Shown: positions 1,748 through 52,161 of the stretch, piece by piece
Numbering within the stretch: the first letter of the stretch is position 1
Layout: the number at the start of each line of letters is the position of its first letter
Assembly: GCA_036172245.1 (NCBI GenBank)
Contig: JAYWIR010000014.1
Span: forward strand, 3,782,001 to 3,846,000
Origin: Raillietiella orientalis
Taxonomy: Eukaryota
Length of the DNA: 64,000 bases
Direction: 5' to 3'
Made by a program: the position numbers and the translations under genes
The notes under the pieces: model-generated
Seen by the model: the letters and a program-made list of their open reading frames with translations, nothing else
What the model was told of the DNA's origin: nothing
Databases searched by the model: none

Positions 1748-1868
1748 GTATACTTATTATTTGGAATAACCTTTTATATACAATTCCTTTTTTTTTTAAT
1801 TACCAATTGGATTTGTGAATTCGAAACTTCCTTCAGACCATGCTGCAGTTATTTTGATAGCCAATCTG

Positions 1869-1892
1869 GTGTGTGTGTGTGTGTGTGTGTGT
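1869..1892. repeat. (GT)12 microsatellite
   Basis: Read directly from the sequence. Confidence 0.9.
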
Positions 1893-4800: not shown

Positions 4801-5972
4801 GCTACTGCCCTTTGTTATCTCGAACATATAGTTAGAAATTTGTCTTGAGCTTCTGTTTACCTTTCATTGATCAAATCGTTGATCCCATGTCAAGGATTTT
4901 TGAAAGTATTGCAAGTAATAGCTGATTATAACCAATTTTAGAATTTGCTTTCCTACCACGATATTCCAACTTGATGTTGAATCAATCAGCTGAATTCTGA
5001 TAGCTTGAATTTTATTTCTTCTCAAAATCATTTTTTGAAATCAATTGTCTGCAGTTAGCAAAACTGATGTCTTAATAAGTAGGTTTATTTGCTAATCATT
5101 GCATAAATACAATTATTGAAGAATTCAAAGCTCGAATTCAATTCACATGCCATTCAGATTCGCAGTGCGTAAATGTAAGCAAGTGGTGGTCTGCCCCCCA
5201 CCCCCCACCCCACTCCCCCCATGCCTAATATTCTAGCAAATTCAGCTTAAAGTGAAGATGGTCGTATTACCAAACTTAACATCCATTTGTTCCCTATGAC
5301 TACTAGGGCGCTTAAGGACAAGGATTCCCTCTTAATAATAATTCTGATTTTTATTATGAATTCCATCTTTATTCGAATGCCCGAAAGAAATGGTACTTTT
5401 TGTCACTTCACTGCAATGCTTGGGCAAAGTTTTGAATCGTGACTTGTTGCTAATGAGCACATCTTCTGATCAGCGATATCTGGGATGGGGCACACGAAAT
5501 GTTCTTGCGGAAAATTGTGCAAACTTCATAGGTGGGTCTTCTAAAAAGGGACGCCAAAATGGGAAAAATTGATGTGTCACGTATCTCCTCCCCAGAACAC
5601 GGGCTTCATGAGCTTCTTCTTTCAAAGATGTACCTGTACGAATGCGAAGATGCTACTCAATTGCCATGGTTGTTTCTGATGAAAAAGTAGATCTTTTCAT
5701 TAAGTGCTATTTCCTCGTGGTAATACTTCGAAACAGGAATACACAAAATTCCTGCTAATACAATTTCATGAATTTCTCGAACTTTTGTTGCATTTCCCAT
5801 TAGTTAATAGAAATACGTATTTAGTGTGCGTCAATATCCATTAAGTATATTGCTAAATAGGTTAAAAAAAATAAAGCTTTCTATAAAATATTCGAGTCGG
5901 ATTGAATGTTTTTGGGGAGTTCCTTGACTGCTGACTTTTTCTTGCCTTATACACTGGTGTGATCCAGGTTTG

Positions 5973-7722
5973 TTATATAATGGGTATATTAAATGTAATG
6001 GCAGGTTTTACAGTTTTGGGAAGAGAAATCCATTCTCTGAAGTGTTTCTTCAAAACAGAGTTTGCATTCAGTGTTTTCTGGAATTATCATTAATTATTCT
6101 GCGCTCGGATCACACGAGCAAGTTGTCTTACATTGTCTTCAAAGGTTTTTCGTAATTCTCGGTACGTATTAAGAGAAGGTGAGAACACGAACACTTGAAT
6201 CCCCAATTGTCTTTCTGCGAATGGATCGACAGTGCATGACAGTTCAGGAAGCAAAAATAAATCTTCGATCAATTCGTTCAAAACCTGGTTACTATTTACT
6301 ACTCTCATGGCACTATTTTGGTACTTACTGTGCAACTAGGATGTAAGTAGATGCATTTTTCAAAATCGGTAAGGGTCCACAAATGGATGATTGCCGAGGT
6401 GTCTTTCATTTTATCGTCCTTACAACCTTGAACATTAAAAGGAATGATCTTGTCGAAATACTTTTCTAGTCTAAGCCTGGGGAAAGGTTTGCTTGGCTCC
6501 GCCAGTTCGTTCACGTACCATACCTTGTATTTTTGCTGATATTGTTTCCTGTCAAAATATTCAGAGGTACTGTTGTTGGAGTATTTTCTATCAGTGATTT
6601 GGCCATCCTTTCCGCCTCCGTTGCCATGTCTTCATTTAACGCAATGCTTATAAAGCAAAATTTCTTGTTCTGTGCCGGGTCCTCAGACTGTGTGCAGCGT
6701 TGCTTAGCTGAGTTGTCGGCCGGTGTGCAGCCTTTTGCAGAGGTTGCAGAGGTTGCAGAGGGATTGCACTCGGAGTCTCCACAGCTACTTCGTGCAGGCG
6801 TCAAATCATTTTTGTCTGGAGTGGTGTCTTGCAATAACGGAGCTTTTTCTGTAATATTTAAACGTGATTTCATTTACTCATCTTGAAGGTTTTTTTTTTT
6901 TTTTTGGCTGCTGCTGCTGCTGCTGCTGTTAAAAGATTGGGAATACTTACCTCCTTGTGCTTTTTGGATATTTTCGCTGTACTGACATGAAGCGGGGCAC
7001 GTTTGTAAGCTTTCCACCTGGAGTAGAAACTTTGAAATCATTTTAAACTTTCTTTATTTCTAGGCTAGCAAGGCATTTAAGCGTTGCCTTTATTGTTATT
7101 GTGGACGAAATTTATTATAGGACATTCGGTAGTTATCGCACTTTTGATGATATTTGTGCTTATACATATTGATCAATTACTGGATTAGTTATTAAGAAAT
7201 TATTCCCTTTGGATTGTTACCCTTTAAATCCAAAATCGTTTTGGCAATATACGTGAAATGTAAGGCTGTTTGCTTTGAGGTGCTTTCTGTAATAAGTAAC
7301 TGTGGAGGGGGAGAGGGGGAGATTTCAACTGTCTACACATATTTCGCACTGTGCTTATGAACTATCATCAATACCTTATTCAGGAAAGAATTATCACTTT
7401 TACTCTTGCGCTCGGAAAATTTGGCTTCTGCTGCGTTTTCTGAATGCAACTTGCTGTGCATTTGCAATAATTTGTAACCACCAACGGTCACTGCTGCTAT
7501 TGTCCCTAAAGCTATGCCCATTGTAGATATCGAAGATTTTTGTAAACCGGAAACTTGAAACATACTGGTGTCATCCGCAATCTTGTTCGAACTTTCCATT
7601 GAACTATGTTTTCGAATTTTTTTTTGTTTTTCTTTTAATCTTTTCAAAGTGCACTTTTTCCACGCTATCGATGTTAGAACCGAACAAAAAGTGAGGAAAT
7701 TTTCCGTGCTGGTAACGCACAT
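5973..7722 (-). CDS. Glycogenin-like (GT8 family) protein lacking catalytic motifs, copy 1, nested antisense in the PCYT2 intron
   Basis: Exons (minus): 7722 or 7599..7375, 7017..6951, 6848..6524, 6476..6329, 6284..6132, 6077..5973; all GT-AG and phase-compatible (introns 357, 102, 47, 44, 54 nt). Spliced core FCFISIALNEDMATEAERMAKSL...KNTR|LRLEKYFDKIIPF...IIHLWTLTDFEKCIYLHPSCT|VLNELIEDLFLLPELSCTVDP...VFVFSPSLNTYREL...|...VLKKHFREW...ITFNI is colinear with glycogenin (AFVTLTTNDAY..., LHCWSLTQYSKCVFMDAD, IDDLFDREELSAAPDP...VFVYQPSVETY, ILNTFFSSW...FIYNL; recalled from memory). N-terminal hydrophobic segment MGIALGTIAAVTVGGYKLL. Confidence 0.8.
6908..6928. repeat. (CTG/CAG)7 microsatellite next to a poly-T run, inside intron 2 of the glycogenin-like gene
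   Basis: Read directly from the sequence. Confidence 0.85.
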
Positions 7723-9615
7723 TGTTGGCACGTTCGACCCGTTCCATATTTTCCGCCAGGACTTCCGAGATCGTGGGAGGACCGAGCATTTTCAACCGAA
7801 AAACATCCTCCTCCCTTTTTTCTAAATAAAAAAGTTCAAAGCTTTGCCACGTTTACCTTGTTTTAAAAAAAAATTTGTATCAAATCGGAAAAAATATGCA
7901 TTCGTTGAAAAAGCCCATTGAAGCTTTGGGGGGGGGAGAGCACGAAAGTAATAGTTTCGTGTTTTCGCTGTTCATGTATATCCTTTATTCTATTCTATTC
8001 TATCCTATTCTTCTTCTAAAGCAGAAATAATAAGTAAGGAGTGTACTGAAAATGTGCTGAACATTTCATCGAATGGAGCTGTTGATGAGCCATTGATGCG
8101 AAAGATCAGTTGTGCCCCACTCCCCTTTCTTCCCGAATTTACGATTTAAAATTGCAGGCATCTTAAAATGAAAAGGTGTGGTCTTGGTACCTGTTTAAGC
8201 CCAATAGGTTCCAGTCTTTTTTTTTTTTTTTTTTTTTTGAAGCTAAGTCCCAGGGAGAATTTACGAAAAAGGATTTTGTTTTCGTGGTGTTTCGAAACTG
8301 TTACCCATTTTTCGAAAAGCCTTTTCCATTCGTTCTGTATTATTAGGGGAAGGAGTATCCCGGTCCAGGTTTCCTGCTTTCCGTTATGGTTGTATCTGTT
8401 GACGACCCAACACCCCTTTTATATCTAATGTTCTGCATACTCCCGCATATAAATTGAGCCATACTTCTCTTGGGGATTGATGGGTAGGAGCTACACGGAG
8501 CTTTCGTATCGTTCCCTGTATGTGGAAGAGGGACAACCATTTTGTTATTTTGGTTAGACAGGACTTTGTAGTTGGTCTTGATATTCTTCAAATACTGTAC
8601 GATGTTTAAGTTTTGTTTTTCTCCTGGTTGTTGAGGTTTAGGTGTGAATGGTGTTGAGAGATGGGAATGTAAACGCCTCTCAGGATTGATGAAAATTCTA
8701 GTTAGATGGCGATAGAGGAATTCTCACGTCGACTTTCATGAAGTAATTAAACGAAGAATTGCTGAGCGAAACTTCGAGTGTTTTCCTCTAGAATGGAATG
8801 GGATGCATAAAGAAATAGAGAGTATGGTTGGCGAGGAGGGAAAAATTCCAGATTGTCCAAAGCACAGGTGCCTGGGGGCATCCATGCCTTGGAACCCACA
8901 TCTCTTTACGAGAACTTTTAATCTCGTTAAGTATTTGGGGGGCAGCTTTCTTATGATTCTATATGTATTTAGCATTAAGCAGAGGTGCTGATACAAAATT
9001 CGTGTTTCGTACGCAGCGTCTTGAAGTTTTACAAACCATTAACTTTTGCATGAAAGCAACTCTTTAGCCTTCGTTTTTCTGAGGAAGTTTCATCTCTTTT
9101 GGTAAATCCAAAGTAAAGAAGTCTGAAAGAGGCTACCGTTTTCCTTGCAATTCGGGGATCACAATTTTAAAAATATAGTACGTTGTGTTTCCTATATTTT
9201 AAAAACAATCCTTCTTCTATTAATCCTTTTAGATTGAGCGTCATTCACAAATTTTGATAAAAATGACTTTGAAAATTGTATGTATTTTTTTCCCCTTTCG
9301 GTGTCGTGCACCCCAATTATGAGCGAAAGAGCATTGATGAATTCATTACTAAAGGAAGTGATAAGAAGAAGAGAAGAGGAATTTTTCTTTATACGCGTTT
9401 AAGATTAGAATGCAAATGAAAGGAATGAATGGAAGAATTTGCTTTTCTGCTTGATCAATTTGTTGTTGTCCATTTTAAATCCATGTAGATTATGTACTGC
9501 TCACGTGCCTACTTTTTAAAGTAATTCTGTTGTATGCAAAACGCTCCCAAATATGCTAGAATGTATGTTTGTTTGTGTATTTATTTCATACTGAATTTTT
9601 ACTGTTGCATTGCAG

Positions 9616-9969
9616 TATGTCTCGGAGGTTGTTATTGGATCTCCGTACATCGTCACCGAAGAGCTCATAAACCACTTTAGAATTAATGTTGTTTGCCAAG
9701 GAAGCATTTCATACCCCACGAAGAAAGATGGACTGGATCCCTACAAAGTGCCTAAACATCTTGGAATTTTCAGGATTATTGATTCTGGCAGCCGTGTTAC
9801 GACCGACGAGATTGTGTGCCGTATTATCACACAAAAGTGAGGTTCCCCTTCAAATTTGAAGTGTCAATGTCTATCTTTTAGGGAAGCATTTGAACATCGA
9901 AATTACGCCAAAGAAGCAAAGGAATTGCAACTTTACCCGACTTTCAAATGTGCAACATCTTCTCTGTGA
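9616..9969 (+). CDS. PCYT2: Ethanolamine-phosphate cytidylyltransferase, last two exons (9616..9836 and 9882..9969)
   Basis: ttgcag|YVSEVVIGSPYIVTEELINHFRINVVCQG...DPYKVPKHLGIFRIIDSGSRVTTDEIVCRIITQ, then a 45-nt phase-2 intron (gtgagg...ttttag), then KEAFEHRNYAKEAKELQLYPTFKCATSSL-stop. Matches the PCYT2 C-terminus (YVSEVVIGAPY...DPY..PK..GIF..IDSGS..TT..IV.RII..R..Y..RN..KEAKE). Confidence 0.93.
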
Positions 9970-10153
9970 TAATTCAAGTTTTAGTATGGGTGTGTTTTGA
10001 CAAAAAAGTATCTTGGAAACTTCTGTATTCGTTGCACCAATGAGTCATTTTTCTCCTTATGTACATGTTGTATCGTTGGTCCTTTTGTAAAGATTTTATG
10101 ATACTATTTATGTAATCAAGGGGTTTTATAATCTTACATTTTTATCATTTCAT

Positions 10154-10159
10154 AATAAA
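10154..10159 (+). promoter_or_regulatory. Candidate polyadenylation signal of PCYT2
   Basis: AATAAA about 185 nt after the TGA stop. Confidence 0.5.
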
Positions 10160-13100
10160 TGCAAATGCTTTATGTAGAAATTATAATAGAAACCTCGAAG
10201 TCAGATATGCTACTTAGTGCACAGTTTTTCCTTAAATACTCGTTTTTGTTCACAAGAGGTGGACTGATTTTGGCAACCCAAAGTCAGGGTTAAATTTCTG
10301 TTTTATCCGGAAATTGAGGTAAAAAAAGGAAGAGATTCATCTTCCTTTGCTTTCACATCTGTGTTTTTCTTCCGAGCATCCGAAGGCTAGGCAACACTTC
10401 CTTCACGATGTCCTTGTGGATTTCGGAGCATGCTTGAAATCTCGGCCTCATATCTTTTACCAGTGAACCTTGCAAGATCGATTATCTACTCCTCCTTAGG
10501 GGTGCCATTCCCATCTTGTAAGTTGCTCTGCAGCCGCTCGTTTTCCTTTCAAAACCGCAACACACTGTTACTAGCATTGAAAGATAGTCTTTTCATCACC
10601 AAGTGATTGGGTAAGGTTTGCATTCGTGTTCGCTTCCATGATCCATCCGTTGAAGCGGCAGCTGCATTGCATTTATATACCTAGTTTTTACATAAAGAAA
10701 GTTGTCTGTACAGGAAAAAAAAATGCTTCCATGTTCTGTATCGAATTTGTGTTATTTTTCTCATACGGTCAAGACTCGTGCCACATTTAGTTTAAGGCAT
10801 TAAGGTATTTCACAGTGTTCCTGCCGTGTGACCCAACATGTGTGGATTCGAAATAACTCAGAAATAGTTCATTTTGTTTCTAAAGTATCACTATGTTTTC
10901 CTAAAACACAAAGGATGTATTTCGAAATAGCAGAATAAACGAGCTGCTCTTGAAATTCATTAATTCTAGGGACATATGTTGTAGATTCGAAAATTAGTTG
11001 AAAAATCTTCATTCGTTTAAAAGCCTGCATCATCCCTCTTACATTAATTATGGCGAATATCCAGCAAACCATTCATTTCTAATAACAGCTTAAAATTAAA
11101 ATTTAGTAAGGTGCAGCTTATCTTAATTTGAGTTACCTTTATTTTTTTGTTGTTTAATTAATCATTTTTTTTATTTATTGAGTGTGCGTGGGGGGGAGGA
11201 TATTTCATCCAAAGCATTATCCTAAACTGAGTTTTTGTCATTCATCTCTGACTTGATTTTATGAGTAAACTTGTCAGAATTGGCCTAGGTAGATTCATGG
11301 AGGCGGATTCGCAATGAGAATATCATCCATTGAGATTACAAAAATGATCTCTTGAATCACTTTTGAAGCATTAAATGAAGCAAAAAATTATCTGGAAAAC
11401 TGCTGAACATCTTGTGATGGTCATATACATTTTCACAACAATTTAGCATCAGATAGCTAGGTTATAATTAATCAGTGCTTAATTAAGGACCTTTCTAACT
11501 TCCAATTTCTCCTCGTCTGAACCCAGTGCATTATTCCTATGAGCTTACGTGAGGAACAAAGTCTGTTTTCAAGTGCAAAAAGATTGGAAGAACCACTAAA
11601 TTGTCCGAAAAATTCATTTTATTATAGAACTAGAATATGAAGGTAAGCCTGCTCGCAGACTTCATGCATGCATCATGTTGCTAGTGCTGCACAAAGTTCA
11701 AAAGTCCATCCTTCAACTTGCATGTGGAGCCATCTTTTATTGCCTATCTATCGAGCACGTAAACACACAAAAATACACAAATAGGGAAAAATAGACTTCG
11801 TCTTGGACAATCCCCATCATGCTTACTCTCCGAGTAGTCGTTTGACCTTTAAAGTCCCAAACCAAAACAAGATGATATTTTTTGTAACTGTGGCACTAGG
11901 TGCTATACTTTTTCTTGCAAGTGTTACTTGTGTCTTCCATATCACTTTGATAGATCTTCACGTGCATCTCTTGTTTTGACATTTCTTTCAGACGTATTTT
12001 TATGAAGGTGAATGCATTTCTTCAGGATTCAGTCAAATGTTTCAGGCCAGTCTGTGTTTCAGACACATTACGACTTTTATGTTAATGTGAATTAAGCATT
12101 TTAGACTGTTAGACTCCTGTAGAAATCTGAATTCTTCACTTCCATTTTAAAAAAAAATGCAAAGTTACTCAGTTAACTTGATTACCTTATTGCTTAAACT
12201 AGTAAAAAAAGAAAAAAAAGTAAAGAATTGACATCGAGTTTTTACTTTATTCATTTCCAAGCATTGCAGTTTAGCTTCATATAATTAACCCAAGATTTGG
12301 TTTGGGGATTTGCATAATTTTTGTCACTCATCCCAATATACCCGGATTTTTCCCATCGATAATGTATTCCATCACATTGGTAAAACTAGTTTTGTGACAG
12401 CTGAAAATTGTATTTCAGACATGTGATAGTGAATAAAATCAACAAAATATTCTTTTTTAGCCACACGATTGACCAAATTAGTCACTTGAGTGTCCAGAAC
12501 AGAATGTTTCTTAGTATAGAAAATCCACAGAGATGTATTTCAAAATCCTTTTTTTTTATATCCATATATTTTGCTTACCCAATGCATACAATTTATCCAG
12601 TCACTCAAAGTTTATTTCTATATTTAAATATGCCTAGGATTTCTTTGTGGGTATATTTCCAAAGTCTTTAAAACATGCATGAGTAAGCAAATGATTTATG
12701 CTGACTTATATTGTAACTTGTCAAATGATTGTGTTTTTTATCTATGCATGACTGTTTAGTCTCCGTTCCCCTCCCCCCCCCCCTCATATACTGATTTTGA
12801 TTGCATGATCCTACTACGATGCTGTTGGGTGTCTCGTATTTAAGACGTCTAGTGCTTTACAATAACAAGAATTACCAGGAATACGGATACTCGGAACTTT
12901 CTCAATGGTCTGCTTTCACATTCAATTACCTCTTTAAAGTTCAACAAACTATTTCCAATTACTTTTTGGGAGTGTTGGTTTTATAATGTTTAAGAATAAT
13001 TCAGAGAGGGATTCTAAATGAGCCACAGTTCTACAGTCAATTTGCTGATCCGTTTCTGAACTTGTTTTCATTTCATGAAAGAAGCATTTAGAAAATCACG

Positions 13101-13433
13101 GTATTGCATAAAGGAAGTTTGCAGCAATTAACTGAAAAGTTGACATGTAGAAATTTCTACACAATCTCTAGGATCTTTTTAAATTTAAATTTTGCTAATT
13201 TACATAATTGCTTTCTTCCTATTGTTACTAAGGTGATGGCTTTCTAAACAATGAAATACGCAAGAAAATTAATTCGTGAGATAAAGGCATCTTGCAAAAT
13301 AGAGGTTTTCGTAAATTGCAAAGATTTCTTCATTGTTTTTTGAAAAGTGTTTCTCGGATCATTTTGCTGGCCATATCAGCTGTCATGATTTCTTACAACT
13401 GAGTTATCCTTTGGAAGAAATGTAGAAAAGTCA

Positions 13434-16400
13434 ATGAGTAAGAATAATAATTCATGCCCAAATAGAACGAGAGAATTTGCGGATGATAGTTCACATGAGT
13501 GGATTACTTTACCTCTTCATAGTTCAACACCTAATCCTGCTGTCGAAAATACTTCCAGTAGTTCAGTCAAAAATGATGAGTTAAATAAACTATCCCATGC
13601 TTTTTCGAGAAAGGATGAGGATACAATAGACTATTTAAGGAGGAAACTTAACAAGCTTATTTCAAGCAGTCCGGAAAACCAATCTCCAGTATCATGTACT
13701 AAAGATTCTAAAGTTTTACGCTCAAAGACACAGCCATATCAAGCAGAAAGTCTGAACAGTAAAAAGGATCCAAACATGTGTAGGCTTTCGTTAGATTTTA
13801 GAAGGTTGGTGAAACTTTATGTTCTAGCATTTGTTGCCGCATTTTCTGTGACTGAATATGGTTTGCCTATAGTAATTTCCATATTATTAGTGATGTAAAA
13901 AACATTGTCCCTTTTTTGATGAGAGAACTGCCTGTAATACACTTGTGCAATTGGCTGCAATTCCAAACATATATGGTCCACAATCATTTTCAGCAATGAC
14001 GAGAATCATACCTCGAAAGAAGATCCTTTCCTCGCCATCTCTCGCTCATTAACTTCACGCACGGACAAACAGCACGAATCCTATCAAAAAGGTGAGACAA
14101 CCGAAATAAATAGACAGTAACTACTTTGAAAAGATTTTTAATTTTTAATTTTGGGAATCATTTCGATGATCAATTAGAAAACAAATCGTTCGGTTATTCC
14201 GAGGTATCAAATGTGACTCACCCATCTACTTCCACATCATATGCCGAGCTCCCGAATCCTTTCAAGAAAGAAAAATTAACACTTTCTAGTGAGTAATCTT
14301 ATAACTTTTTTTTTTTTTTTTTGGAGGGGGGGGGGGTAATTTCAAATTGTAGTAATTAGAATACCCAACTGAAATCAGTTTAAGGTATTGCAAAGTTGAT
14401 TTTTTCATTGAGAATTTGGAAAAAAATTATGTATATGGAATCAACTAGACTGGAAAACGAAAAAATAAGCAGTAAAACTAGAACTTTGAGTAAAGTTTAT
14501 GTGCAAGACTTTTATCTGCTCTTAGTCTAAGAAACCAAAATTCAAAATGCAAAGGAAAAGAAGTGCATTGAAGAAAGCAATTTTAGAGAGTCTTTGAGTA
14601 GTGTATGTAGGCACCTTTAATATTACAAACTAAAAATTACAATTCTAATATCCCTAACGGATATTAGAAACAGGTGTAGCATCGACTTCTTTCTGAAATT
14701 AATGCTTATTTATGATGCCAAAATCCCGAAAACTATCGTTTCTTGTACAATCCAAGAGGCATGGAAATTGATTTCTACTCTATTTTCTTTGTTAAAATTA
14801 TAGTGGATATCGTCAAAATTAACTCATCATGATGTTCCCCCCCCCCCATAGATTAAGTACAAATTAATGAAAGGAGAAGGATGATATTTTACGAAGGCAA
14901 AATTACATTTTAACGGAAATTTGTAGGAAAAAAATGAAACGGGAAATAGGATTTTGTCCTCTATATTTTTCGTACTGCTAGTGAGTTTAGGAAGTTTTGT
15001 ACTATGGGCTGCAACGGAAGCTTATTTTTCTCAGGGGATTGCTCAGATGTCCAGAAATGGTTCCCCCATACATGTCTCCACATGTCATCAGGAACGAATG
15101 GCATTGCTAATTTGCTTAGGCGTGCTTACAACTCGCAGCACGTCTACATGTATAACCCTTTAACATGATCGTTGTTAATCCTTTTCGGTAGGAAAGTTTT
15201 TGTAAAATTACTGGTGTAATGATGAGGAAATCAATCTGTTGCACAGGTTTCATCCACAACCAAAGTGAAACTAAAAATCGATTTCAAGATCCCTATGGCA
15301 AGTTGCACACAAAACATTTTTCCTTGATGCCCCAAAACGAAAATTCTTTCGATAGATTGAAAATCTCAACTCAAAAACAACAAAATAATTAGCATGGTAA
15401 TAGCAATTAGTGTTTCAAACATGTAATCTAATCTTCAGGGAACTGCGCGCACTAAATGCCAAAAGAAAGAAAAGAAATACAAATCATTTGATTCCAGATA
15501 ATAATTTTGAAAGCTCTTTATTTTTAAATATGTGATTAAAAATGAAAGCAATGGGAAACCCTGTACGAATGTCAGTATTTCTAAGCTTTTTCAAAGAACT
15601 AGGTTATCCGTGCTTTACTTTATGTATCCTTTTAATCATGACGATACGTAGTAATAATAATCACATTATTTCTTTTGATTTAGAGAGTTATGTACTGAGA
15701 AAATAGTAGATGATTATTCTAAATGCTTTTTCTCCCAAAATGCCAACTGCAGACCATGAAACCAAAATTAAAAAAGACAACCAACAACAACAACCAATGA
15801 ACGGTGTTAATCTGCAAGAGAAAAAGGCTATTCAGAAGACATTGATTGACATTTCCACACAAATTCGAATGATGGCAGATTTTGCTTTATCACGAAGTCC
15901 TCTGTCCTCAGTAAAAACTTTGATTGTTATTGAGGAACTGAAAAAAGGAATTCAAGATTTACAGTCACAGATGAAACGAATGAGTCAATCTTTCCTTACC
16001 TGTGAAGATCTATGCATTGCGAAACGAGTGGCTTGCACTCTTTCGGAGAAACTGGAATTATGTCGTCTCAGTCTTCTTTCTGAATTCGAAATTCTATCAA
16101 AAATCCATAATCATGAAACAGTAGATGAGAAAGATACATCTTCGATCAAAGAAACCACTCTGAAAAGCATAAAAGAGCTGGTAAGCATAGACAAAAATTT
16201 GGAAGATTTACAAAAGCGATTTAGCACTTTTGTTCAAACGGGAAACATGTCGACAAAGAGTCTTGAAGGACGAAATTCCACTAATGCTGCGAAACCCAAA
16301 GCCTCGAGAAGGCAAACCAAACCTAGTGCTGAATCAAATCCCGAACTGCGCTCTAACATGCATGAATACACAAAAATGAATAAAAGCAAACGATCTACTG

Positions 16401-19400
16401 GTAAAGCTGCGCCTCGTAAAAAATTATATTACTGTAAGGAGATAGATTACTTACATCCTGGATGTTTGAAACGAAAGAAAGCAAAGAGAAAATACCAGAG
16501 ATCCAGGAAAGCCTGCGAAAGCATCAATGATACCGCATCTCATTCTTTTACGTCATCTTGCAAACATTCTCAGCGAATAAAAGAAACCAATGGTAATTCC
16601 AACGCGCATTCTTCTGAGGATTCTCCCCCATCCCCAATTTTATCCAAAGATAAACCAAAATGGAATAAGAAAAAGGTTCCTCAATGTAGACGATCGTTGC
16701 GAAAGAAAAAGTCGGATAAGCAGTACCTCTTGTGTGAAAGAATAGAGATCCTCTCTGAAAATGAGAATAGCTCTGCTCATTCAGGACGTTGCAAACATTT
16801 CCATGAAAAGACAAAGCTGAAAAAAGTTCATTCTTTGCAAAAACTGGACGATGTAAACTCAGACACATCCTCTTCGATGTCTCATCACGAAAGGGGCATT
16901 TCGAAAAACAGTCAGAATAATGTGGAAGATAAGAAATCAGTATCTCAAGGTAACAAGCTCAACTGTTTCCTCTCTAAAAGTGATTCGTTTCTACTATTAA
17001 AAAGAAGTAATCGTAACAAAAAATGCCCATGCAATCTTTGCGATACTGAGCGAAAAAAATATTTCAAGTGCATCTATAAAGATCATTTGGGGACTAAGAA
17101 GAGGTGGCATGATTGCAGTTCGCCTCAGCGTTCTGCCGCTGCTAACAAGAATTCTCCTGCTGAAGGACAAAAGGAAGCACTCTGTGAAAGAACTAGCGAG
17201 AATTTGGATGCTGAATATTCTTTGTTATTAGGCGATCTTTCCTCAAACAGAATTGGCCTAAAGTGGGCTAACGGGGAAGAATACTCAGTAGAACTTCCTA
17301 TACCTCATACCTCTGGTAAACCTGAAGGATGCTTTTTAAATCTTCCATGGAAGTACCCCAGGAACACCCGTGTCCACATACGTGGTAGAGTGTTTCTAGT
17401 GAAATTCCCTTCCCGCAAAGCAGAAGTGCTTTCACAAAGAAAAAGTGACGGCGCACTTGAGAGAGCATTTTCAAACGAAGATGTGAATGCAAAAGGAAAT
17501 TGCACATTACATTGCCCATGTCTTTCCGTGTTGCATTGCTCGGGACAATCAAAATCTCAATGCCACTGCATTTTCCCATTTTCCTTGTGTGCTTTTCTAC
17601 ATGACTGGTATCGAAATTTTTGTACTACAGATGAGCCTCATGTTATGTTATGCAATCAAGGAAGACAGCATGAACATCTATGCCACCTTCGCAGTAAATC
17701 CCAGACTTCAGATATTCCTGAAGATAATTCTAATGAAAATGTGGAAAATTCAGTTCGAGCCAGGCCATTAGATTCTTCTCGTGGCAAAGAACAGTTTATA
17801 AATACGCTCTCATGTCCATCTAGAAAGAAGAGCGGAAAGCATCAAGAACTTACAACACCTGACTTGAAGCCAAATGAAAAAGGTGTCTCCAATCGACTCA
17901 TTAGCAACGATACAAACTTCCACTTGCAATCAAGGGATCGAAATGATGATCTACCAAATGCAGTAAGTATGGAATAACTTCAAATAATTATGAGGTGTTA
18001 CTCAAAGCTAAACTGGTGATTGCGACCGCTTCGTTTTCATTAAATTATTTCATCTATGAATTTTTTGTAAGTCTGAATGGCTGATTTTGACGATTTCTGT
18101 GCGACACTCGGCAGAAATTTTCCACATTCACATACTTATTGGGAACCGTTGAGTTTCGGGAACCAGAAAGTCAAGAACATAATGCTTTCGAAATCGTCAG
18201 GCACGATGAATTAGTGGGCATTTATGGATTGCGTGTTATTAATTTCCATGACTGTTTTGCATTTTGTAACCTAGTAGAAAAGCATTGCCTAAATTTGCGA
18301 TCGCTTGTTCAATGCAGAATTCGATATCGTCACACGTTTTCACGTTCAGTCCTGCCTCTTCAAAGTGAAGGAGATCCCTAATTCTTGCCAAATTGGGAAA
18401 TCATTTATAGCTCAGTGATTTATGCTCATCCTCATTTTGCGGATTAATTGCTGAGGAGGTTCCATTCCAAATGACAGATCATGAGGACATACAAGAGCTA
18501 AGTAATCTAGAGAAAGCATCAGCCATTGGCTGTTTTTTTAAAAGGATCAATCTTAGCTCTTCGATCTTCCCATGTTTCATTAGTCAGAGGAGAATGCATG
18601 CCAAGAAATTGCATTACCCCTCTGAATAATCGCTGTTTCTGAAGAAAAAGAAACTTTATAAATGGAGATAAATTGTCATAAATTCTTTCTCAACATTCAG
18701 CCTATTCAGTTCTCGAAAAATTGGAGTGGGAATTTTTTTTTTTCTAACCTTCGATGCCCTAGTTTAGCATGAATAATAACGACGTAAAGGAATTGACACT
18801 GAAAGCAAGCGTTGCTTTTCTTCATTAAATGTGTTCCTCAAAGTGGACACTGAGAGTTCCTTCGAACTTCCATTCTTTGCCTGCAAAAATTTCTTTCGGC
18901 TGCAGACCTATAGTGTTCTTTAGTTAAGGTTTGTAGTGGTATTTGGATTTTTAGAATTCCCTGAGATATAATGGTGCCATGAAACAATATGGATGATCTG
19001 CATCTTCTGAACGTAGTTACTGTAGCTCAATCAGCATGTTGACGAGGTATTCAGAGATTCCGTGACCTTTATACTTCATCCTTTGTAAAACGAGGCAGTC
19101 ACATTTATCTGATAGTTTTTTTTTTTTTTTGCATACATTTATCACAAATTCAATCTTGACTTTTGGTCTGCACAGTACGCTTCCAGTATGATGATAATTC
19201 TCAACCGTGACGTCATTATTCTCTTCAAAGATATAGCTGGATATAACTTGTAACATACTTATAGTCACATTTTTAATCAAAATGTGAGCAGTATTGGGTA
19301 GCAAGTATCTTCTGGAGTCAATTAAAAATATACTTCATAATCTGTTTGGTATAGTTTGGGTTAGTGTTGCAGCGGCAAGTCCAAATTACTCCAATTTTTC

Positions 19401-22400
19401 TGCCTAGCTTTCAACGAAAATACAGCCCAGATGAGGTTAGGAAAGATATCGCTTGAGAAACTATGTAACTGTCCTTGGCCTGTCATTTATACTGCCACTT
19501 TTGTTTCAGTTATTTTAGATCTGAGGTGAAATCTCTTCCATTCCAGGAGTTGAATCACAGTACTTTATTCATACCGTTACCATATCATGCTAACTATATC
19601 TAAAAATCTATTTTCAATGCTGGAGACAGAAAGTCAGAGAGAGAGACACCCCCCCCCCCCTTCTAGTATTTTCTGGTATTTCTGAAGTTGTATCAGGAGC
19701 ATGGATGATTTATTTGATGCACTAGAAATCGTCACAGACGTAATTTATTTTCATTCCGATTCCAGTCTGTGAGAACTAGACTTTTTAAAAGTCATGTATT
19801 ATTTTGGGTACGAATGCATGCGCTTAATGTGGAGAAAGAAGAACGAAAAGCAAAAAATTTTATGCCATCTGAGTGCTTTTTCATTGAATGCTCACCGACT
19901 TGCAAACAAACAAACCCGTTTCAATACATTTCTGAAAGAGCATTCCGAAACAGCCAAACAAAGCAGTTAAAAATGCGTAAGAAATGAAGTGTTCGGTCTT
20001 GTGCGATGGATGCTCCATGAAAACCTATCCAGGTCTTTCTTTCTTCTAGAAAGATAACTTTTATGCCTTCTGGGATTAGTAGGAATCCTTTTAAGTGACA
20101 GTTTCTCGACTTGATGATCGCAGAAAATGCCTGTGTTTATAATGATTTATTGCAGCCCTGAATTTCTCATTTCTTTTCGTATTTTAGTTTTCATTGCTTT
20201 CTTTTGAAGGCTATTTTGCAAAGCAGGAAATACTGGTTAACCAACGACACGCCAGCAATGTTTGACAGCCCGGCTATGCCTTGTGGCCTTGTGCATTTTT
20301 ATTATCTGTTTGTTGAATCTGCAAAGATCACATTGGGGGTATTTGAAGTAGAAAATAGCAATAAGATTGTAATTTTCTAATTTTTGTACCTTTTTTCCAA
20401 TTTTGTATCGCAGATGCGAGAGCAAACTAGCACCTCGTAACTAAATGGAAATATTGACAAGCGTTGGCAGAAAAGAAAAGAAAAAATTCAAGGGCAGTAC
20501 GGACATGGGTTGTTATTTTATAAATTAAGGGTCCAGAACGGGATTTTTTTTTTTTTTTTTATTTTTTTTTTTTTTTTTTTTTTTAGAAAAAAGCGATGCA
20601 TATGTTCATCTGATCTCTTAATTCTTGAAAGTTTAGACTGCAAACAAAAACTAAAAACGTCTTCCAAATGGTCTAGTTTTCCCAGAGTTCTTCGAATACT
20701 CTGTCAAAAATTATGCAAGCCTACTTTTATGTTACTCTTTGCATTTATTGTGATAGTAAGGCAAATGTATTTAGGCTTGTAAAAATGAAAAACGTACAGT
20801 AGTATAGGAATGATAAGATGGCTGTTGCATTTTTCATCTGCCCTATCTCCTTGCATTCACGAGTGCAGAATATTCAGAGGTGGTTGGCTGGCACTTGTGC
20901 TTTTGTTTTGTTTTTCGCTTTTCCCAATAACTTTGCATGATTCAGGGTCAATGCAATAGTTGTTGCTGATTTCACAAATTATTTTAAATCGGTAAAGAGT
21001 CGATAAGAACGTAGAAGAATATTGTCTTTCCTAAACCATGCATGATTGCGAATAGCATCATTCCATTCGAATATGTGATATGTGTTTTCAATTCTCATCA
21101 GTCATCTTTGGAAATGTATTTTCTATGTAGGTTGAATTGTTCAGATAAGGGTAGATCACCCCGAAACGACTTTTCGTCTTAAAGAACCCCAGAGTGTTCA
21201 GGTAGGGATTCGGAACGAGTCTCCATGAATGCTTCTTGCTAATCACGGGTTGCCGAAAGCACGAACAAAGTAAAACTAAAAAAATGAAATTTCGAAAATT
21301 TTATCGATAAAATTTGAATAAAAACCGAAAAAATTCAGATATGCTAAGATTTACTCGCGCTAGAATTTTAATAGCGGCCATACTATATCAAAAGTGGATT
21401 CTTCATCCATGCACTGTTTGTGAAATAATTATGTTTCAGTTTGTATTTGCTTAACTTCCATATTTTAAATTTGGTATTTACATCGATAGCAGTTATGATT
21501 TCAGAACCAAGAAAAGCGGATCAAAAACGATATTTATGGTGATCGTTGGGGTTTTTCTCACAAAATAGATGCAATATTGCAAAATACAGAGGAAATAAAG
21601 AGAAACAGGTTTGAAAGCAACAGGAGTTGCTCGGAACAGCTCAATCCAAGTGACGGGAATTCCATTCCGAATGTCCCGCATCACAAGAGTGACCAAAAGC
21701 AGCCGAGATCAAGTGGTGTAAAGAGCAAATGCAAGCATTCAGCGTTTTCGAAACATCCATATAGCGCTTGCATTAACAGTTGTGTTTCTGGAAGCAAAAA
21801 ATTCAAATCAGTTGGGACAAACACCACATCTCACTTTAGTTACATAGAACAGTTGCTTTCTAGCGGTTCGAAGCAATCGGTTGACAGCTTTGAAAGTCAC
21901 CGCATCTTGTCTCAAAAATTGCTACAAAATAGATCGAAATGGAATCACGCGGGGTCCTTGCTGAAGCAGTCCCCGGGCCCTCGAGAAAACAACGTGAGAA
22001 TCAGATCAGGCGCTTCGGCAAACAGGAAAGTGGTTGAAGAAGCGGAAGGATGCAAAGTGAAGGCAGAGAAATTGGGAACCACAAGCTTGGAGAATGATTG
22101 GAATCATTCAGGAGATGAAGGGGTTTTCACGGGCATCCCATCAGGAAACAGGATTTCGAGACGTGCTGCAGGTCCAACCGTAAACTTTGAAAGCACTACT
22201 CGAAAGACGTCGTTTAGCAAAGTTCTAGCAGCCAAGTCTACAGTGAAAGGTACGTGAGTGACCATTTGAATCTCCGAATAATGCTGGAAGCAAAATTTCA
22301 ATCAAAGACTTGAAATAGCTTTCCGATGATATCCTAGACGGAATAAATTATTCGGTTCAGATAAAAAGATGGAATTTAAAGATCTATTTCAAGGGGAAAA

Positions 22401-24157
22401 AAAACAAAAAAAAACTGAATCGGTCGGAGTTTGATGTTTTACGCTCGAAGCCAAATTCTATCGAAAGTCTTGTCATCAATCTTGCGTGCGAAAGAAATCC
22501 CTTCATGAGTGTAAAAAAAAAAAAAAAATTGTTTAGAGTTCCAACAAATTTACACGTGTCAGTTTAAATAAGTTTCTTATAATCCTTGCGATTCAACATC
22601 TGTGTTAAAGTATGTTTAAATGTTATGATTACTCAACATCCACAGTAATGCAAGAGACAAGACGGTGTCTGCTATGAGCACCTAGCCTATGGAATGTACC
22701 GTGCACGAAACTTGAAATCGTAACCATGGTTACCATAGTTGTGTTGCATAACTAATGCCCTCGTATGGTTGTAATGACGTAGCATTGTATAATTTTTCTA
22801 TTAGCTTCAATTATCTGGATCATTTGAAATAACGAAAACTGAATCTGAGCATCTAGTCCTTATTTGGATTTCCTATTTCTGTTTTTACCCAGTTTCTGAG
22901 TCTCCGTAGGGGCACGCTATTGAAACAGGAAGTTACCACCATGTTTATTAATTTCTTATCATGGGATTTTTCTCAATTCTTTCAAATACAAGAACACTAC
23001 ATGAGGAGCTCATCACTTCTTAAATAGATCTGCAGCTTATTAAAAAGAAGAAGAAGGATGCCTTGTACTTCGAAAACATCCATTTCGAAAGTAGTTCAAA
23101 ATAACTGGAATTCCAGGCGTTTAGAATTAGGTTTAGAATAAACTCTTGGAAGATTTCCTGCGAATAACGAAAGTAACCAGTCAATCTGGAAAAATTACGA
23201 ACCTTTTTTTTTTTTTTATCGCAGCGTGTAGGATTATAAGAATGCATTATGTGCATTGTGTACACTCATGTAATTCATCCACCCATCATCCAAGGGAATA
23301 ATGATTTTCCAAACACGGACGAGGATACGAGAACGTTAAAGATCCGATGTATATACTAGGAAATTAAGGAAGCATCACATCCTAGCCTTCTTTCTTTTCT
23401 TTCTTTCTTTTTTTTGTTTTTCAGTTTTACAATACTATATATGCCAAATTTCACAGCAAGATAGATAAAATACAGGCGTAAATATAAATAACATGAAGGC
23501 TCTATAAGTTATGGGACAAGTATAGAATTTGCTTTTTTGAAAAGAAAAAAAAAATGTATCAAAAACCTTGATAGGTAAGAAAATAAACAGGAAAAGTTAC
23601 TGTCCCGATTTCATGCCATCCCTTTCATTACTAACAAACATCTTTGAATGATTTCAAAAATTTGAAAATCAATCAGTCCCACTGGAGATGAATGAGTCTT
23701 CTCTTTACATGAATTTTAAGCACTCACTATTCTGATCAATAATTTAATATCAAGTTGGTCTTGATTCGCAATTACTGTCTGAAAATTCACTTGAAATTGT
23801 AGGAAAGTTTTCTCTTTATAAGGTTTATTCGTGGTTTTGGGTGCAGCTTCTCGTTTAATCCATGGTTATAAGAATCCTCCATTGCAGCAACATGCTTGCT
23901 TTAATTGACCTCGTGGATCCATATTCAGTTTGTCATAGCGAGAAAAGTAGTTTCCCATGTGGTGTTCACTTCTTTCACTTTTCTATAAAAGCGTATTTCT
24001 GTGCTGAAAGATGATCCCGTTCCAGTTGTCCACCGATTTCCGAGTCTTTACATCTTCAGATCTGAATCGAAATACGCCTGCAGAAAATACAACCGCGTAC
24101 AGTTGCGATAAAGATGTGGCATGTACACATTTATGCATTACAAGCAAGATCATGTAA
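13434..24157 (+). CDS. Uncharacterised large multi-exon protein (~1,170-1,190 aa), Ser/Lys/Arg-rich with a helical/coiled-coil region and Cys/His-rich patches
   Basis: Phase-consistent model: 13434..13804 (ph2), 13994..14091 (ph1), optional 15247..15297 (51 nt, G|GCAAGT GC donor), 15753..17962 (2,210 nt open, ph0), 21505..22249 (745 nt open, ph1), tentative last exon 24060..24157. A 2.2 kb open frame in AT-rich DNA is very unlikely by chance. No family recognised; the last exon is uncertain. Confidence 0.7.
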
Positions 24158-26211
24158 CTTGAAGATTAATAGGAAACACACGTGTCACGAGCAAGTGGTT
24201 GGACCATACTGGATCCACACTGAAACAAAATGAATTGGTAGCCCAAAGACGTGTGAACTAAAATGTGGCAGAATTCGGTGAGAGAAAACAAAAGTAGAAT
24301 ACAAAATATGCTTTTGGGGAAAAGATGGGAAATGCATGCGCTAGGGTGGGAACCATGGATGTTTCCATAGTAAATTTTCCTAGGTACTGAACGCAGGTTT
24401 ATTAGGCAAACTGACAAGTAAGCCATAGAAGCTGTAGTAAGGAGAAAAATGGTGCTGCTAACAAAATATGTACTATGGATTTCAATTTGTCCAGAGACAA
24501 TTGTTAATTCCTTAAGAATTTCTGGAAGGGAATGCATTTATTTGTGAAATACCTGTTTGTACTCCTGCCTTTTTCTGATGATGCTTTACTGAGGCAGCCA
24601 GGGTCAATAAATGATTCTGTGAGAATGTGACTGCAATCCACCCGAAAAAAGAATCAGTTTGAACAGTCATGAACAGTTTATTTTTGCTGCGTGCCTTATT
24701 TAGTTGGAAAATAGCAAATTATCTCGAAATTTACCTGCATTTGACGTGGATTGATCTTCAGAACCCAACTTTTCTGTTTCATGTTGGCATGCATTAACGC
24801 AAAATCAGATAGATGTATTTAATTTTCATGACATGCCTTAGTTTTATTTATTTATTTATTTTAGTTCATCACTGGCAACGTTAATAATTCTAGATTGTAT
24901 CGCCTTTCATTTTTAAAAGTTTCCGTACTTGCCTGATGAACTCCTAGAAGATTAGATTCGGAGAAGAGTAGTTTATTTTGATAAGTGTCTGCGACGACGG
25001 CAAGAAAACGATCTTCGAGTATCAAACTAAAAGGACTTCTTTTGTGTGGGATTTGGTTGTCATTGAACAACCGTACGTGCTTTTTGAATTTCACTGACAG
25101 AGAGAATGATATAGATAATCCTTTATTATATACCTCGACAGTAATGTACTGTATCAGGTTATGACAATTGATTTCTCTCTCTTCTGAATAAGTAAATAGT
25201 TTTCCTCTCGGCGAATTTCAAATGCTCATTTTGAAATGAATGGTACCAGTTTCTATTCCCGGAATCGGGATTCTGATTTGCAGAGGTATTTAAGGTACGT
25301 GATTCGCGATTGCATGCATACACACATGTATACGGTTCATGTACCTATCTATGTGCACATATACAGAGGTAAGGAAACGTACTGATTTAAGAAACCTTCA
25401 GTTGGATGCTTGTTTCGTCTTCCGAGGAAACAAGCATCTACAAAACACACGTACGCGTGCTTTAATCGAGTCCCATTCCAATACGTTCGATGCGTGCATT
25501 CCACAGGTTGCCATTTCTTGTGCGTCACTTTGGCTCTGCCTCTTCCTCCGAGATTGATTAGCTCCTTTTTGTGTGCGTGCTTTTTTTCTTCCTTTCTTCC
25601 CTTCACTAATGAGAAGTTTTCAAATGACAAAATGCGATGCCTGAATTTTCGTGCTGTTTGATTTTTTTTTTTTTTTCCCCTCTCTCTCTCTCTCTCCTCC
25701 TTTTTCTTCTTGCTTTTTAATGCTGACTGTCCTGTTGAAATGAAATCTCAGTGTGTTGAAAAAGGAAAAGAGAAAAGCATGGTACCAGAATAAGAACCTT
25801 GGAACCATCACGCAAACTATTCGTTATTGATCTTGAAACAACTCTCTCGAAGCTCTCATTGTGACAAAAAGATGCCACATGGTCCAAATTATAACCCTTT
25901 ACTTACTGAACATTTTATCATCGGGCATCAGCGGTCGATTGATCCGACGTCTGAAATCTGTCGCCGGTTACCAACTTCTAGTTTACCTTTCCGACCGAGA
26001 GACATGGTACATCTTGAAGTATACCACACATGGTGATGAAATGGGCTAATTTCTTGAAAAGTCCGTTCGTTCATGCACGAATAAAGAGCTACACCAAGAA
26101 GCCAATACTTTGTGCAAGTTTTTATACATTTTGTGCTTAGTTGATGACTTTCCAACAACGTCACATATACATAGTGAAGTGATTCGTTGCAGCATTTTTC
26201 TTTTCTTCCAG

Positions 26212-27011
26212 ACACATGGTCAGTGAATCAGCGCTTTCACACTTATTCCGGTGGCTTCAATATGGAACGTACGTGTAATTTGCTTGTGGTTAGTAGCACG
26301 TCTGATTTCATGAATGCAGATATCAAACTGAAAAAAAGACGCATGGCTTTTGTAACGATGGCCATATCGAAAGAAATGAGTCGAAAAGCGAAAATACTGG
26401 GGAAGTCGATTCTACAAAATACAAAAAAGAGCTCGGTCATTTTAGTTGGTCCTCTCATACGAAGGAAGCAAAGGTTTGTTCTTCTATTCTAGAGAATCCT
26501 CCTTTCCATTCCACCAGAGAACTTCTCGACGGCGTATATACACGATGCATTCCGATTGAAAGCTGTTGTGCGAAAGATGAAGCTTTCATTTTATCTTTCG
26601 CATGGGATTTGGAAGAATACGAGAAATGCGTATTTTTATCAGCAAACTGTGCGGTCAGTAAGATATCTGAGCGATGTAATTATTATAACAGGATTCATTT
26701 TTTAGATCTTGCACGAATGCGATAAACTATTTAGAGAAAGAGAGCTCACCGTTTTTACCGATAATTTGGAAGCCGACCAGTGGAAAAATTACGTTCTCGT
26801 TTTAAAACCCTGCCATGCCACGGCGAACAGAATCCGCCACTTTCTTGAAATTTCACAGGTCTGTACCTTCCATGACAAACAAGGTGCAGCACAATTTGAA
26901 AATAAGGGGAAGAATGGATCCATCGTTTCCGTTCCAAGGATGCTGCGGAGCTGCTTCAGTAACCTCTATCAGACTTCTGATACATTGGCTGAGTACTGCA
27001 AGTCATCGTGA
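26212..27011 (+). CDS. Glycogenin-like (GT8 family) protein lacking catalytic motifs, copy 2 (5' end uncertain; possibly frameshifted near the 3' end)
   Basis: Exons 26212..26268 (tentative), 26320..26473, 26518..26653, 26706..26858, 26907..27011; introns 51, 44, 52, 48 nt. Spliced: MAFVTMAISKEMSRKAKILGKSILQNTKKSSVILVGPLIRRKQR|ELLDGVYTRCIPI...SFAWDLEEYEKCVFLSANCA|ILHECDKLFRERELTVFTD...YVLVLKPCHATANRI...|GKNGSIVSVPRMLRSCFSNL. Same intron positions and phases as copy 1; the central exon is 153 nt in both. Confidence 0.78.
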
Positions 27012-28891
27012 AGCACAGTTTGGTGGAAGAAGCTGTGGAAAGAAAGCACCTGAAAAAAATTGCCATTTTTGAGATTTTTGGGCGTGGCAGTACTAAGAAC
27101 GTGCATGTGATTGCGTGTGTTTTGGGTAATAAAACCATCTTGAGGGTTTTCATGAGGGCGTTCGTTGTTTTCCCTAGCACACACCGAAAACAGATAGAGA
27201 AACAGCACGTCCCTATCAAATTTCCTCTTTTCTTGCGCCCGTCGACGCTCTGAGTACTTTTTTTCTCCCCCTCTCTCTCTCTTTCAAAGCAACCTTACTA
27301 TTAGCAACATTAACGTAATCAGTATCTAACTAAGCCTCGTTATTGCAAACATCCGGGCTGATTAAACATGCTACTGTTACGACGACATCATTTTCTATTT
27401 TCCAGCTTTTCGTGGTACATAAATCTATTTGCTTATTCTTTTGTATTACGCAAAAACGACAGACTTCTTTTTTTCTCTTTTTTGAAAACTGAAGCTATTT
27501 GGGGGCATCAACCAAATGCTTTGGATTGATGGAATATTTGATCAAATTCCTGTGGTAGAAGAGGAGCCAGAACTTTTCTAATCGTTTTGCTCCAAAAAAG
27601 GAGAAAAAAACATCCCCGTATTTTAACATAATTTGAAGTCATCTTGTGATGATGATCGTTCGATCAGCTTGAAAATCCTAAGCATTTAAAGAGTCAGTTG
27701 AAGAGCAGCAACGAAACTGTTTTTTTTTTTTTTATTTTAAAATCTCTAAACATAGTTGGGCAGTTGAGCTGTTTCTAATCAAAAGGCAACAAAATCTTTT
27801 CTATGCATTGCGGATACAAATTCTTTACACAGCCAAGAAAAAAAGAGCATTGACTTACAACAAATTGAGTCATCCAGCAAAAATTGTGAACGTCATGAAA
27901 AATCTTTTAGATCTGTATGTTGAATTTGATGACATGTTAAAGGAGTCTGTGAGGAAGAATGGAAAAAGGCAAGCGAAATGGCGGGAGGGGGGGGGGGGGG
28001 AACAAAAACTCTGCAGATTTATACTGCTTGTGTTTTTATCTTAGGCCCGGGAAGCTGCATTCGTATGTAGTGTTTGCTGACGATCATCTCCTTTGTTCAG
28101 CCAGCGAATGCTCCTAGTTTTCTGCACAAATGTGGTATAAACTCTCAATTTAAGATTTTAATTTGGAATGGTGCCTTCTATTTTTATTATTTTTATTTTT
28201 ATTTTTGAGGGGGGGGAGGGAGGACGAGGGGAGGGAACAAAATAAAGTGATCCCTAAAACGAATCAAATTTCGGATTTTCATCTGTGGAAGAGAACCAAT
28301 CGGCGAACTGGAATTATGCTAACGTGTAATGGCCGAAGGCTAATTTGGGAAGTCATCCCCCTCCTCCCTCTCCAAAAAAAAAAAAAATAAATACTTTTAC
28401 TCTTATCGTTTCCTCAATCGCGTCTTAGCCGGAAATGATGTCAAAGACTGACAGCGCTTTGTCGATCGAATTTCCCATTCTGAACTGTGCTCAGTGTTTT
28501 GTCAGTCCGGATGAATCCCACAAACCGTTCACGCCTTTTGTATTAAGTTTCGAATATCTGTAGCGGAAGTCGAGATGCCGAGTTTTTCACGAGTTCATGA
28601 ATGCTGTGGGCATGGAGTGATGGAGCATTTGCATTCCGGCAATGTGGTAAAAGAATTCATTTTGGAATGTTTCCGTGTGCAATTTGAGATGGCCATTCTT
28701 TACTTTTTAATTGAGCCGTTATTCAGTGAGGCCTCTTCAGAGTGGTTCTCGTTCCTGTGAAACCAGAAAATAGCAAACACAAACGAAGATGCATTCATTA
28801 GATCGATGATAATAATCAATCGACGATGCTATAAAGGCTGCGCCCAACGAATCCTTAATTGCATGAAACATTGGTATGCCTCATGTGACGT

Positions 28892-51779: not shown

Positions 51780-52161
51780 ATGAGACCCAAGCTCGCTTTC
51801 TTACTGCTGTGCGGTGCCTGTTGGAAGCTTGCTGTGACGATCCGTTCTGGCATTTATGTGGATAATGGAGTTGACCAAACCCTGGTGGAGAGGAATTTCG
51901 ATCGTGAAGAAAGCGGAGCCATCCAGAATGAAATTCTGCACCTGATGGGTTTACACCATGAACCGAGAGTAGTGAACCAGCTCGGGAATAACGAATCAGC
52001 TCCGAAATTCTTATTAGATGTATATAAAAGTTTAGTCGAAAACGAAAACTTGGGAGAAATGAAAGATACATCTTTTGTGCCTTTCACTTCGAAATTTATT
52101 ACCCAAGCAGGTGCTTCGGCCATAGATGATAGCGATATCATAATGACATTTAAAAGCCACA
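51780..52161 (+). CDS. gbb: BMP5-8/60A-class ligand (glass bottom boat), exon 1: signal peptide and prodomain start
   Basis: MRPKLAFLLLCGACWKLAVTIRSGIYVDNGVDQT...EILHLMGL...P...SAPKFLLDVYKSL...AIDDSDIIMTF, closely matching the Gbb prodomain (SGIYIDNG.DQT, SAPKFLLDVY, AIDESDIIMTF); donor A|gtaagt, phase 1. Confidence 0.92.

Follow-up and report, generated by a model that had tools for sequence, protein, structure and literature searches.

Can a glycosyltransferase whose active site has been dismantled persist as a protein of another kind? The question is raised by two genes in a 64,000-nt stretch of the Raillietiella orientalis genome (GCA_036172245.1, contig JAYWIR010000014.1, positions 3,782,001 to 3,846,000), hereafter the window, which lies on contig C14 of the 210-Mb assembly. 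A preliminary description had presented them as a local family of catalytically dead, glycogenin-like paralogues of family GT8. The two genes, named copy 1 and copy 2, lie 18.5 kb apart on opposite strands. In our reading, held at a probability of about 0.55, they are old dead duplicates of glycogenin that kept its N-terminal core. Their products would take no part in glycogen priming and would instead have a non-enzymatic role in binding or structure, which may lie in the male germline.

Glycogenin descent and loss of the active site

Homology was assessed with a glycogenin hidden Markov model (HMM) of 205 positions, built from 25 fetched glycogenins (of 38 matches, those aligned over more than 180 aa were kept). 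The spliced models of copy 1 and copy 2 scored 80.3 and 67.9 bits over profile spans of approximately residues 3-188 and 3-156, respectively, against maxima of 6.4 and 8.0 bits among 1000 shuffled sequences of each. Exon C alone gave an hhalign probability of 87.6. A search of the PDB with exons B and C of copy 1 ranked glycogenins first at weak E-values of 0.03-0.2, and no glycogenin was found there with the exon C-D stretch of copy 2. None of the eight single-exon queries matched PF01501 in Pfam, because single exons are too diverged; the GT8 profile check therefore succeeded for the full spliced models with the glycogenin HMM and failed for single exons in Pfam. By sequence comparison, the glycogenin homology of both copies is real, and the glycogenin origin first claimed for them is borne out by the margin between their scores and those of the shuffles.

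The canonical glycogenin that was to be sought genome-wide was located by a motif search on contig C13 (~2133740-2136011, minus strand), not the contig of the copies. It carries DSD at the DxD site, GGDQG, the acceptor Tyr195, VHF, KPW, and a degenerate synthase-binding tail. When its last modelled exon was read through, the protein was 670 aa long. In this version the degenerate synthase-binding motif falls at residue 442 and ~220 residues follow it; unseen introns could shorten the protein. The conserved Trp175 is absent from this gene and kept by copy 1. A PF01501 search of the genome returned three other GT8 loci, which from their translations we take to be LARGE, GXYLT, and UGGT, and a single glycogen synthase locus was found on contig C21. 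Both copies score the glycogenin locus above the three other GT8 loci, and derivation from LARGE, GXYLT, or UGGT was rejected on this ranking.

The DxD site is replaced by HPS in copy 1 and by SAN in copy 2, as had been described, and the GGDQG motif (G-loop and xED position) is likewise confirmed as lost, being unrecognisable with no G-G-D-Q in either copy. Both proteins end near residue 190, upstream of the acceptor Tyr, the metal His, KPW, and the synthase-binding tail, leaving a domain of ~185 residues. The acceptor Tyr is thus absent as claimed, but not by substitution, since both stops come earlier; read-through of the copy 1 stop would give Thr at that position and would restore no catalytic residue. 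Neither copy retains any of the four GT-A active-site elements, namely DxD, the G-loop, the xED position, and the C-terminal His (C-His). Here and below, statements taken from cited papers refer to the excerpts of them that were available. The DxD-plus-His metal site has been described (10.1101/764241), and Asp102His in human glycogenin abolishes autoglucosylation (PMC5203857); copy 1 has His at the site of human Asp102. Loss of DxD alone is not always fatal to GT-A enzymes, GT14 and bacterial GT6 being active without it (PMC7185993).

The pattern of conservation was examined at the 66 positions where 26 glycogenins show at least 90% invariance. Of the 32 hydrophobic positions among these, 29 are still hydrophobic in copy 1 and 26 in copy 2; invariant Gly/Pro positions are identical at 1/8 and 2/8, and invariant polar positions at 10/26 and 9/26, respectively. 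T12, Y16, R78, K87, W129, N134, D161, D164, and Q165 (C13 glycogenin numbering) are altered or deleted in both copies. The Arg and Lys residues of the lid are lost and the lid itself is partly deleted, by 9 residues in copy 1 and 13 in copy 2. The cross-subunit contact residues of human glycogenin are W128, D160, Y195, and Y197 (PMC12267440); at W128 copies 1 and 2 have A and E, at D160 they have N and V, and Y197 lies past the stop. A structural map, which is a model of a true glycogenin and not of the spliced copies, places the missing parts in the acceptor-arm helix, the metal-His strand, and the long C-terminal helix.

The ~4 kb downstream of each copy contained no exon-5-like sequence (His/KPW), the best scores being 4.2 and 1.9 bits versus 75.1 bits in the C13 glycogenin, itself within the profile. 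A profile of 11 synthase-binding tails found no tail over the same distance (best -1.3 and 2.2 bits versus 10.6 in the C13 glycogenin). A hidden downstream exon with His and KPW was rejected by the exon-5 scan, and the resemblance of downstream frames to NKP and FLG is attributed to chance, with profile scores of at most 4.2 bits.

Probable common origin of the copies and past selection

Introns 1 and 2 of both copies have the same position and phase as those of the C13 glycogenin, which points to duplication at the DNA level; these introns are ancestral and mark descent from glycogenin, not a shared derived state. A retrocopy origin was rejected, as the introns are kept. Intron 3 is the sole derived intron: in the copies it is in phase 0 and the exon before it has 153 nt, whereas in the C13 gene it is in phase 1 and that exon has 163 nt. 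Consequently, the three shared intron positions and phases that had been offered as the mark of a family hold as such for intron 3 and not for introns 1 and 2. The shared central exon length of 153 nt was also found, although the equality includes a one-residue insertion in copy 1.

Other derived features are common to the copies. The lid deletion is found in both and is absent from 25 of 26 glycogenins, their stop positions fall within a few codons of each other, and they have the same residue at 9 of 65 derived positions (p 0.018 by permutation, or 0.037 when residues are permuted within hydrophobicity classes). These positions, the lid deletion, intron 3, the stops, and proximity, not the tree, lend modest support to a sister origin of the two copies.

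Further members were sought with exon profiles, which recover the known copies at 10-24 bits per exon. Scans of 464 kb around the window plus 200 kb around the C13 glycogenin (~0.66 Mb) yielded no third copy. A weak colinear pair in locus L046 was read and rejected as a third copy. Searches of the genome with six exons of the copies returned the copies only, plus one weak place (L005), which was rejected because no glycogenin sequence is present there. The genome-wide query with the true glycogenin and the PF01501 search miss both known copies, so the count is at least two. The family claim thus stands for two related genes, with modest evidence of sisterhood, and gained no more members in the ~0.66 Mb scanned.

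Outside the genome, exon C of copy 1 gave 18 candidates, none at E<=10, and the ESM Atlas returned no usable match for either of two queries. A profile made from the exon C-D stretch of copy 2 and exon C of copy 1 had a single match among 1.84 billion representatives, a 2976-aa repeat protein, which was rejected because it aligned to the putative intron stretch. These blanks say little about homologues, close relatives being absent from the protein collections: the conserved exon of the C13 gene found nothing nearer than an 80% match, and an exon of the gene that hosts copy 1 matched nothing.

Each four-exon model is open to its terminal stop, with no frameshift or internal stop in ~180 codons per copy. 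The six modelled introns all have GT-AG borders, measure 44-54 nt (47, 44, and 54 nt in copy 1; 44, 52, and 48 nt in copy 2), and are in phases 2/0/0 in each copy; the introns of the normal glycogenin are similar in length, at 43-65 nt. Protein identity is 39/165 between the copies (24%, which agrees with the strong mutual divergence first noted), 50/181 between copy 1 and the C13 glycogenin, and 40/170 between copy 2 and the C13 glycogenin. Identity at codon positions 1, 2, and 3 was 0.42, 0.50, and 0.30 between the copies, 0.41, 0.54, and 0.27 between copy 1 and the parent, and 0.39, 0.46, and 0.28 between copy 2 and the parent, with chance at ~0.26; the values at positions 1 and 2 are raised somewhat by the use of a protein-guided alignment, although introns anchor that alignment and gaps in it are few. 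Third positions being near chance and first and second positions above it, silent sites are saturated and replacement sites are not.

When neutral evolution of the C13 gene was simulated to 27% or 23% protein identity, 9-10 stops arose on average and 0 of 20,000 frames remained open in each case, even without indels. Placed on the true-glycogenin model, gaps fall at 1/97 and 0/97 positions of secondary structure and at 10/91 and 23/91 loop positions in copies 1 and 2, respectively. Taken together, the saturated silent sites, the absence of open frames under neutrality, and the location of gaps in loops indicate that the frames were long kept as proteins by selection. The view that these are coding genes and not ordinary pseudogenes is accordingly upheld as far as long retention is concerned.

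Gene models and surroundings

The coordinates of the modelled exons and associated features are collected in Table 1. For copy 1, the preliminary description gave an extent of 5973..7722, of which 7722 is one among several possible starts. Two alternative open routes lead from the Met at 7599, giving 340 or 344 aa, and either would add a moderately hydrophobic segment with basic residues behind it. The two linker exons each work singly and break the frame when combined; they are candidates for mutually exclusive exons and behave as such exons would. An in-frame Met at 6873 is another possible start. Copy 2 probably starts at 26262; its protein has a pI of 9.2, 30 K+R residues, and no hydrophobic segment. 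The third intron of copy 2 is in frame and stop-free with a weak acceptor, which makes it the least certain of the modelled introns; it may be retained or may end 6 nt later.

Table 1. Positions of the two glycogenin-like copies and associated features in the window
Feature	Position	Strand	Description
PCYT2-like host gene intron	1748..9615	+	7868 nt, GT-AG; flanking exons 1547-1747 and 9616-9837; contains copy 1 antisense
Copy 1 candidate first coding exon	7375..7599	-	Met at 7599; moderately hydrophobic segment (Kyte-Doolittle 1.47 over 19 aa); putative link to copy 1
Copy 1 candidate alternative linker exon	7221..7299	-	phase 0 to 1; yields open 344-aa model
Copy 1 candidate linker exon	6951..7017	-	phase 0 to 1; yields open 340-aa model
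Copy 1 exon A	6524..6848	-	opens with ~60 codons of low complexity, followed by beta1-alpha1-beta2 of the glycogenin fold; ancestral phase-2 intron after
Copy 1 exon B	6329..6476	-	lid short by 9 residues; HPS (6343-6335) in place of DxD; then ancestral phase-0 intron
Copy 1 exon C	6132..6284	-	153 nt; VFVFxPS strand retained, GWPDxFN motif gone
Copy 1 exon D	5973..6077	-	105 nt to TAA; GGDQG gone; stop two codons before the acceptor-Tyr position
Copy 1 post-stop codons	5946..5972	-	nine codons ending PVYK; register matches PAYK of the normal gene
Copy 2 candidate upstream exon	26212..26268	+	in-frame ATG at 26262
Copy 2 exon A	26320..26473	+	very basic; ancestral phase-2 intron after
Copy 2 exon B	26518..26653	+	lid short by 13 residues; SAN (26639-26647) in place of DxD
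Copy 2 exon C	26706..26858	+	153 nt
Copy 2 exon D	26907..27011	+	105 nt to TGA; 48-nt intron before it in frame, uncertain
Possible polyadenylation signal, copy 2	27128..27133	+	AATAAA, 117 nt past the stop

Copy 1 lies within an intron of a cytidylyltransferase gene (Pfam match PF01467, the sole such locus found), which by recognition we take to be PCYT2. The two exons of this gene that flank the intron encode its C-terminal domain, and the N-terminal domain is just upstream of the window (L017). Between the copies are long Lys/Ser-rich open reading frames on the plus strand, at 15710-17977 (755 aa), 13389-13898 (169 aa), and 21499-22257 (252 aa), with no Pfam match, which are possible orphan genes.

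Farther along the plus strand, 33046-34277 contains exons of a trypsin-family serine protease (PF00089). A broken non-LTR retroelement occupies 38873-41040, where a match to reverse transcriptase (PF00078) is followed downstream by an endonuclease-like frame; similar sequence occurs in L046. A BMP/TGF-beta gene is found at 51450-52196 and 60574-61065, with propeptide (PF00688) and mature domain (PF00019). The usual paired-cysteine motif of this family is CC, and by eye one paired cysteine appears here as RC. The GC content of the window is ~30% at its start and climbs to reach 68% in the final 5 kb.

Competing interpretations and significance

The hydrophobic core is kept, the catalytic motifs are lost, and the frame was selected in the past, which is the pattern of a GT-A pseudo-glycosyltransferase. 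Under the preferred reading of the copies as non-enzymatic binding or structural proteins, an early DNA duplicate of glycogenin would have been truncated near residue 190 and then duplicated locally. Both copies would be spliced and expressed as modelled, and the shortened domain would fold and bind a partner protein or a membrane via surfaces other than the old active site. In flies, testis-biased expression is common among fast-evolving genes that lie antisense within introns.

Several points weigh against this reading. The male germline is a guess at the tissue, made by analogy, to which we give somewhat less than even odds, with no pointer to it in the sequence. The lid deletion also occurs in one of the 26 glycogenins (P0021), and in the tree both copies are on branches at the length cap, which makes their placement impossible. 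The positive controls of the exon-5 scan, including the C13 glycogenin, sat within the profile itself. In the structural model, the loss of strand 7 and the C-terminal helix (residues 210-256) could destabilise the fold. Past selection does not prove present function. As to the PVYK after the TAA of copy 1, 2.9% of 59,942 background 9-mers score as high (4.1% of the stop-free ones); it may be fortuitous, or it may point to a stop that arose recently by mutation or was introduced by the assembly.

A more elaborate proposal, which we regard as tentative, is that the copies are stand-alone 'half-glycogenins', dead GT8 domains cut before the acceptor arm. A newly acquired N-terminal anchor would hold copy 1 at a membrane, and the proteins would act as structural elements or scaffolds within a genome-wide stock of dead duplicates of metabolic enzymes, most plausibly in sperm.

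Somewhat less probable is the explanation that one or both genes were long functional and have recently become pseudogenes. In copy 1 the TAA would be a newly arisen nonsense mutation, or else the assembly would be wrong at this codon and the protein slightly longer than modelled. The in-register PVYK past this stop, which shows silent-type differences from the C13 gene, fits such a history, as do the weak third acceptor of copy 2 and the very fast divergence. However, the stops of both copies lie within a few codons of each other and neither has an exon 5 or tail downstream; the ~180 codons of each are free of frameshifts and internal stops, all six introns are GT-AG, and read-through still puts Thr at the Tyr position.

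Retention of a ligand function, whether binding of UDP, a nucleotide sugar, or a glycan, or metal-free transfer like that of GT14 and bacterial GT6, is unlikely. Besides DxD, the G-loop, DQ at the xED position, and C-His, the copies have lost T12, Y16, R78, K87, N134, and KPW, and almost none of the polar residues of the old pocket is common to both. Glycan binding, one of the roles first suggested, is doubtful because the donor/acceptor pocket and the entire C-terminal part are missing and the lid is incomplete. The idea draws on the tolerance of some GT-A enzymes for DxD loss (PMC7185993), on the binding of GalNAc by the inactive GALNTL5 (PMC12443989), on the basic character of copy 2, and on the fact that the part retained is the N-terminal, nucleotide-binding half.

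It is more improbable still that the copies are decoy subunits that regulate glycogen synthesis like the low-activity human GYG2, paired with the true glycogenin or the synthase. GYG2 is a known suppressor (PMC12267440), glycogenin is dimeric, and both a normal glycogenin and a glycogen synthase locus exist in the genome. Nevertheless, the equivalents of W128, D160, Y195, and Y197 are lost or past the stop and the synthase-binding tail is absent, which weighs against the heterodimer regulation of true glycogenin that had been suggested. Moreover, an interface with a slowly evolving parent should be conserved, yet identity is 24-28%, no higher than to foreign glycogenins. Equally improbable is that the copies are independent duplicates that decayed in parallel and form no family: their mutual identity is no higher than that to the C13 glycogenin, the tree is uninformative, and their exon D registers are four residues apart, but they lie close together on a contig that is not the parent's and have in common the derived phase-0 third intron, the lid deletion, the stop region, and 9/65 derived residues.

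Among known systems, the copies are homologous to glycogenin-1 (GYG1; CAZy GT8; PDB 3t7m, 1ll2) over ~residues 4-188 and retain its hydrophobic core. They differ in lacking DxD, GGDQG, C-His, KPW, the acceptor Tyr, the dimer contacts, and the synthase-binding tail, and in having a partly deleted lid and a domain of ~185 residues instead of ~260 plus tail. Human GYG2 is also a glycogenin paralogue with little or no priming activity alongside an active parent; unlike the copies, it retains the acceptor Tyr, the dimer contacts, and the synthase-binding domain and acts via glycogen synthase (PMC12267440). COSMC (C1GALT1C1; GT31) arose by duplication of a GT-A enzyme, no longer has DxD or xED, and took a non-catalytic role, but it belongs to another family, is a secretory-pathway chaperone of its parent, and is not truncated like the copies (PMC7185993). 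GALNTL5 (GT27-like), an inactive GT-A paralogue kept for binding and a model for a germline role, differs from the copies in being a type II membrane or sperm-surface protein of another family for which GalNAc binding was shown (PMC12443989, PMC11655647). The Drosophila S-LAPs are arthropod dead duplicates of a housekeeping enzyme retained as structural proteins; they have an unrelated fold, eight members, and testis-specific expression and serve as an analogy only (PMC6388916).

No dead stand-alone glycogenin paralogue was found in the literature, where coverage of subscription journals was thin, in agreement with the earlier statement that no description of such a family was known. Dead GT-A paralogues as a kind are already known from COSMC and GALNTL5, and the finding is of moderate interest. 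If expressed, the two copies would be the first stand-alone glycogenin-derived pseudo-enzymes in the literature searched, and they would indicate that a GT-A domain cut to its first ~190 residues can persist as a stable module.

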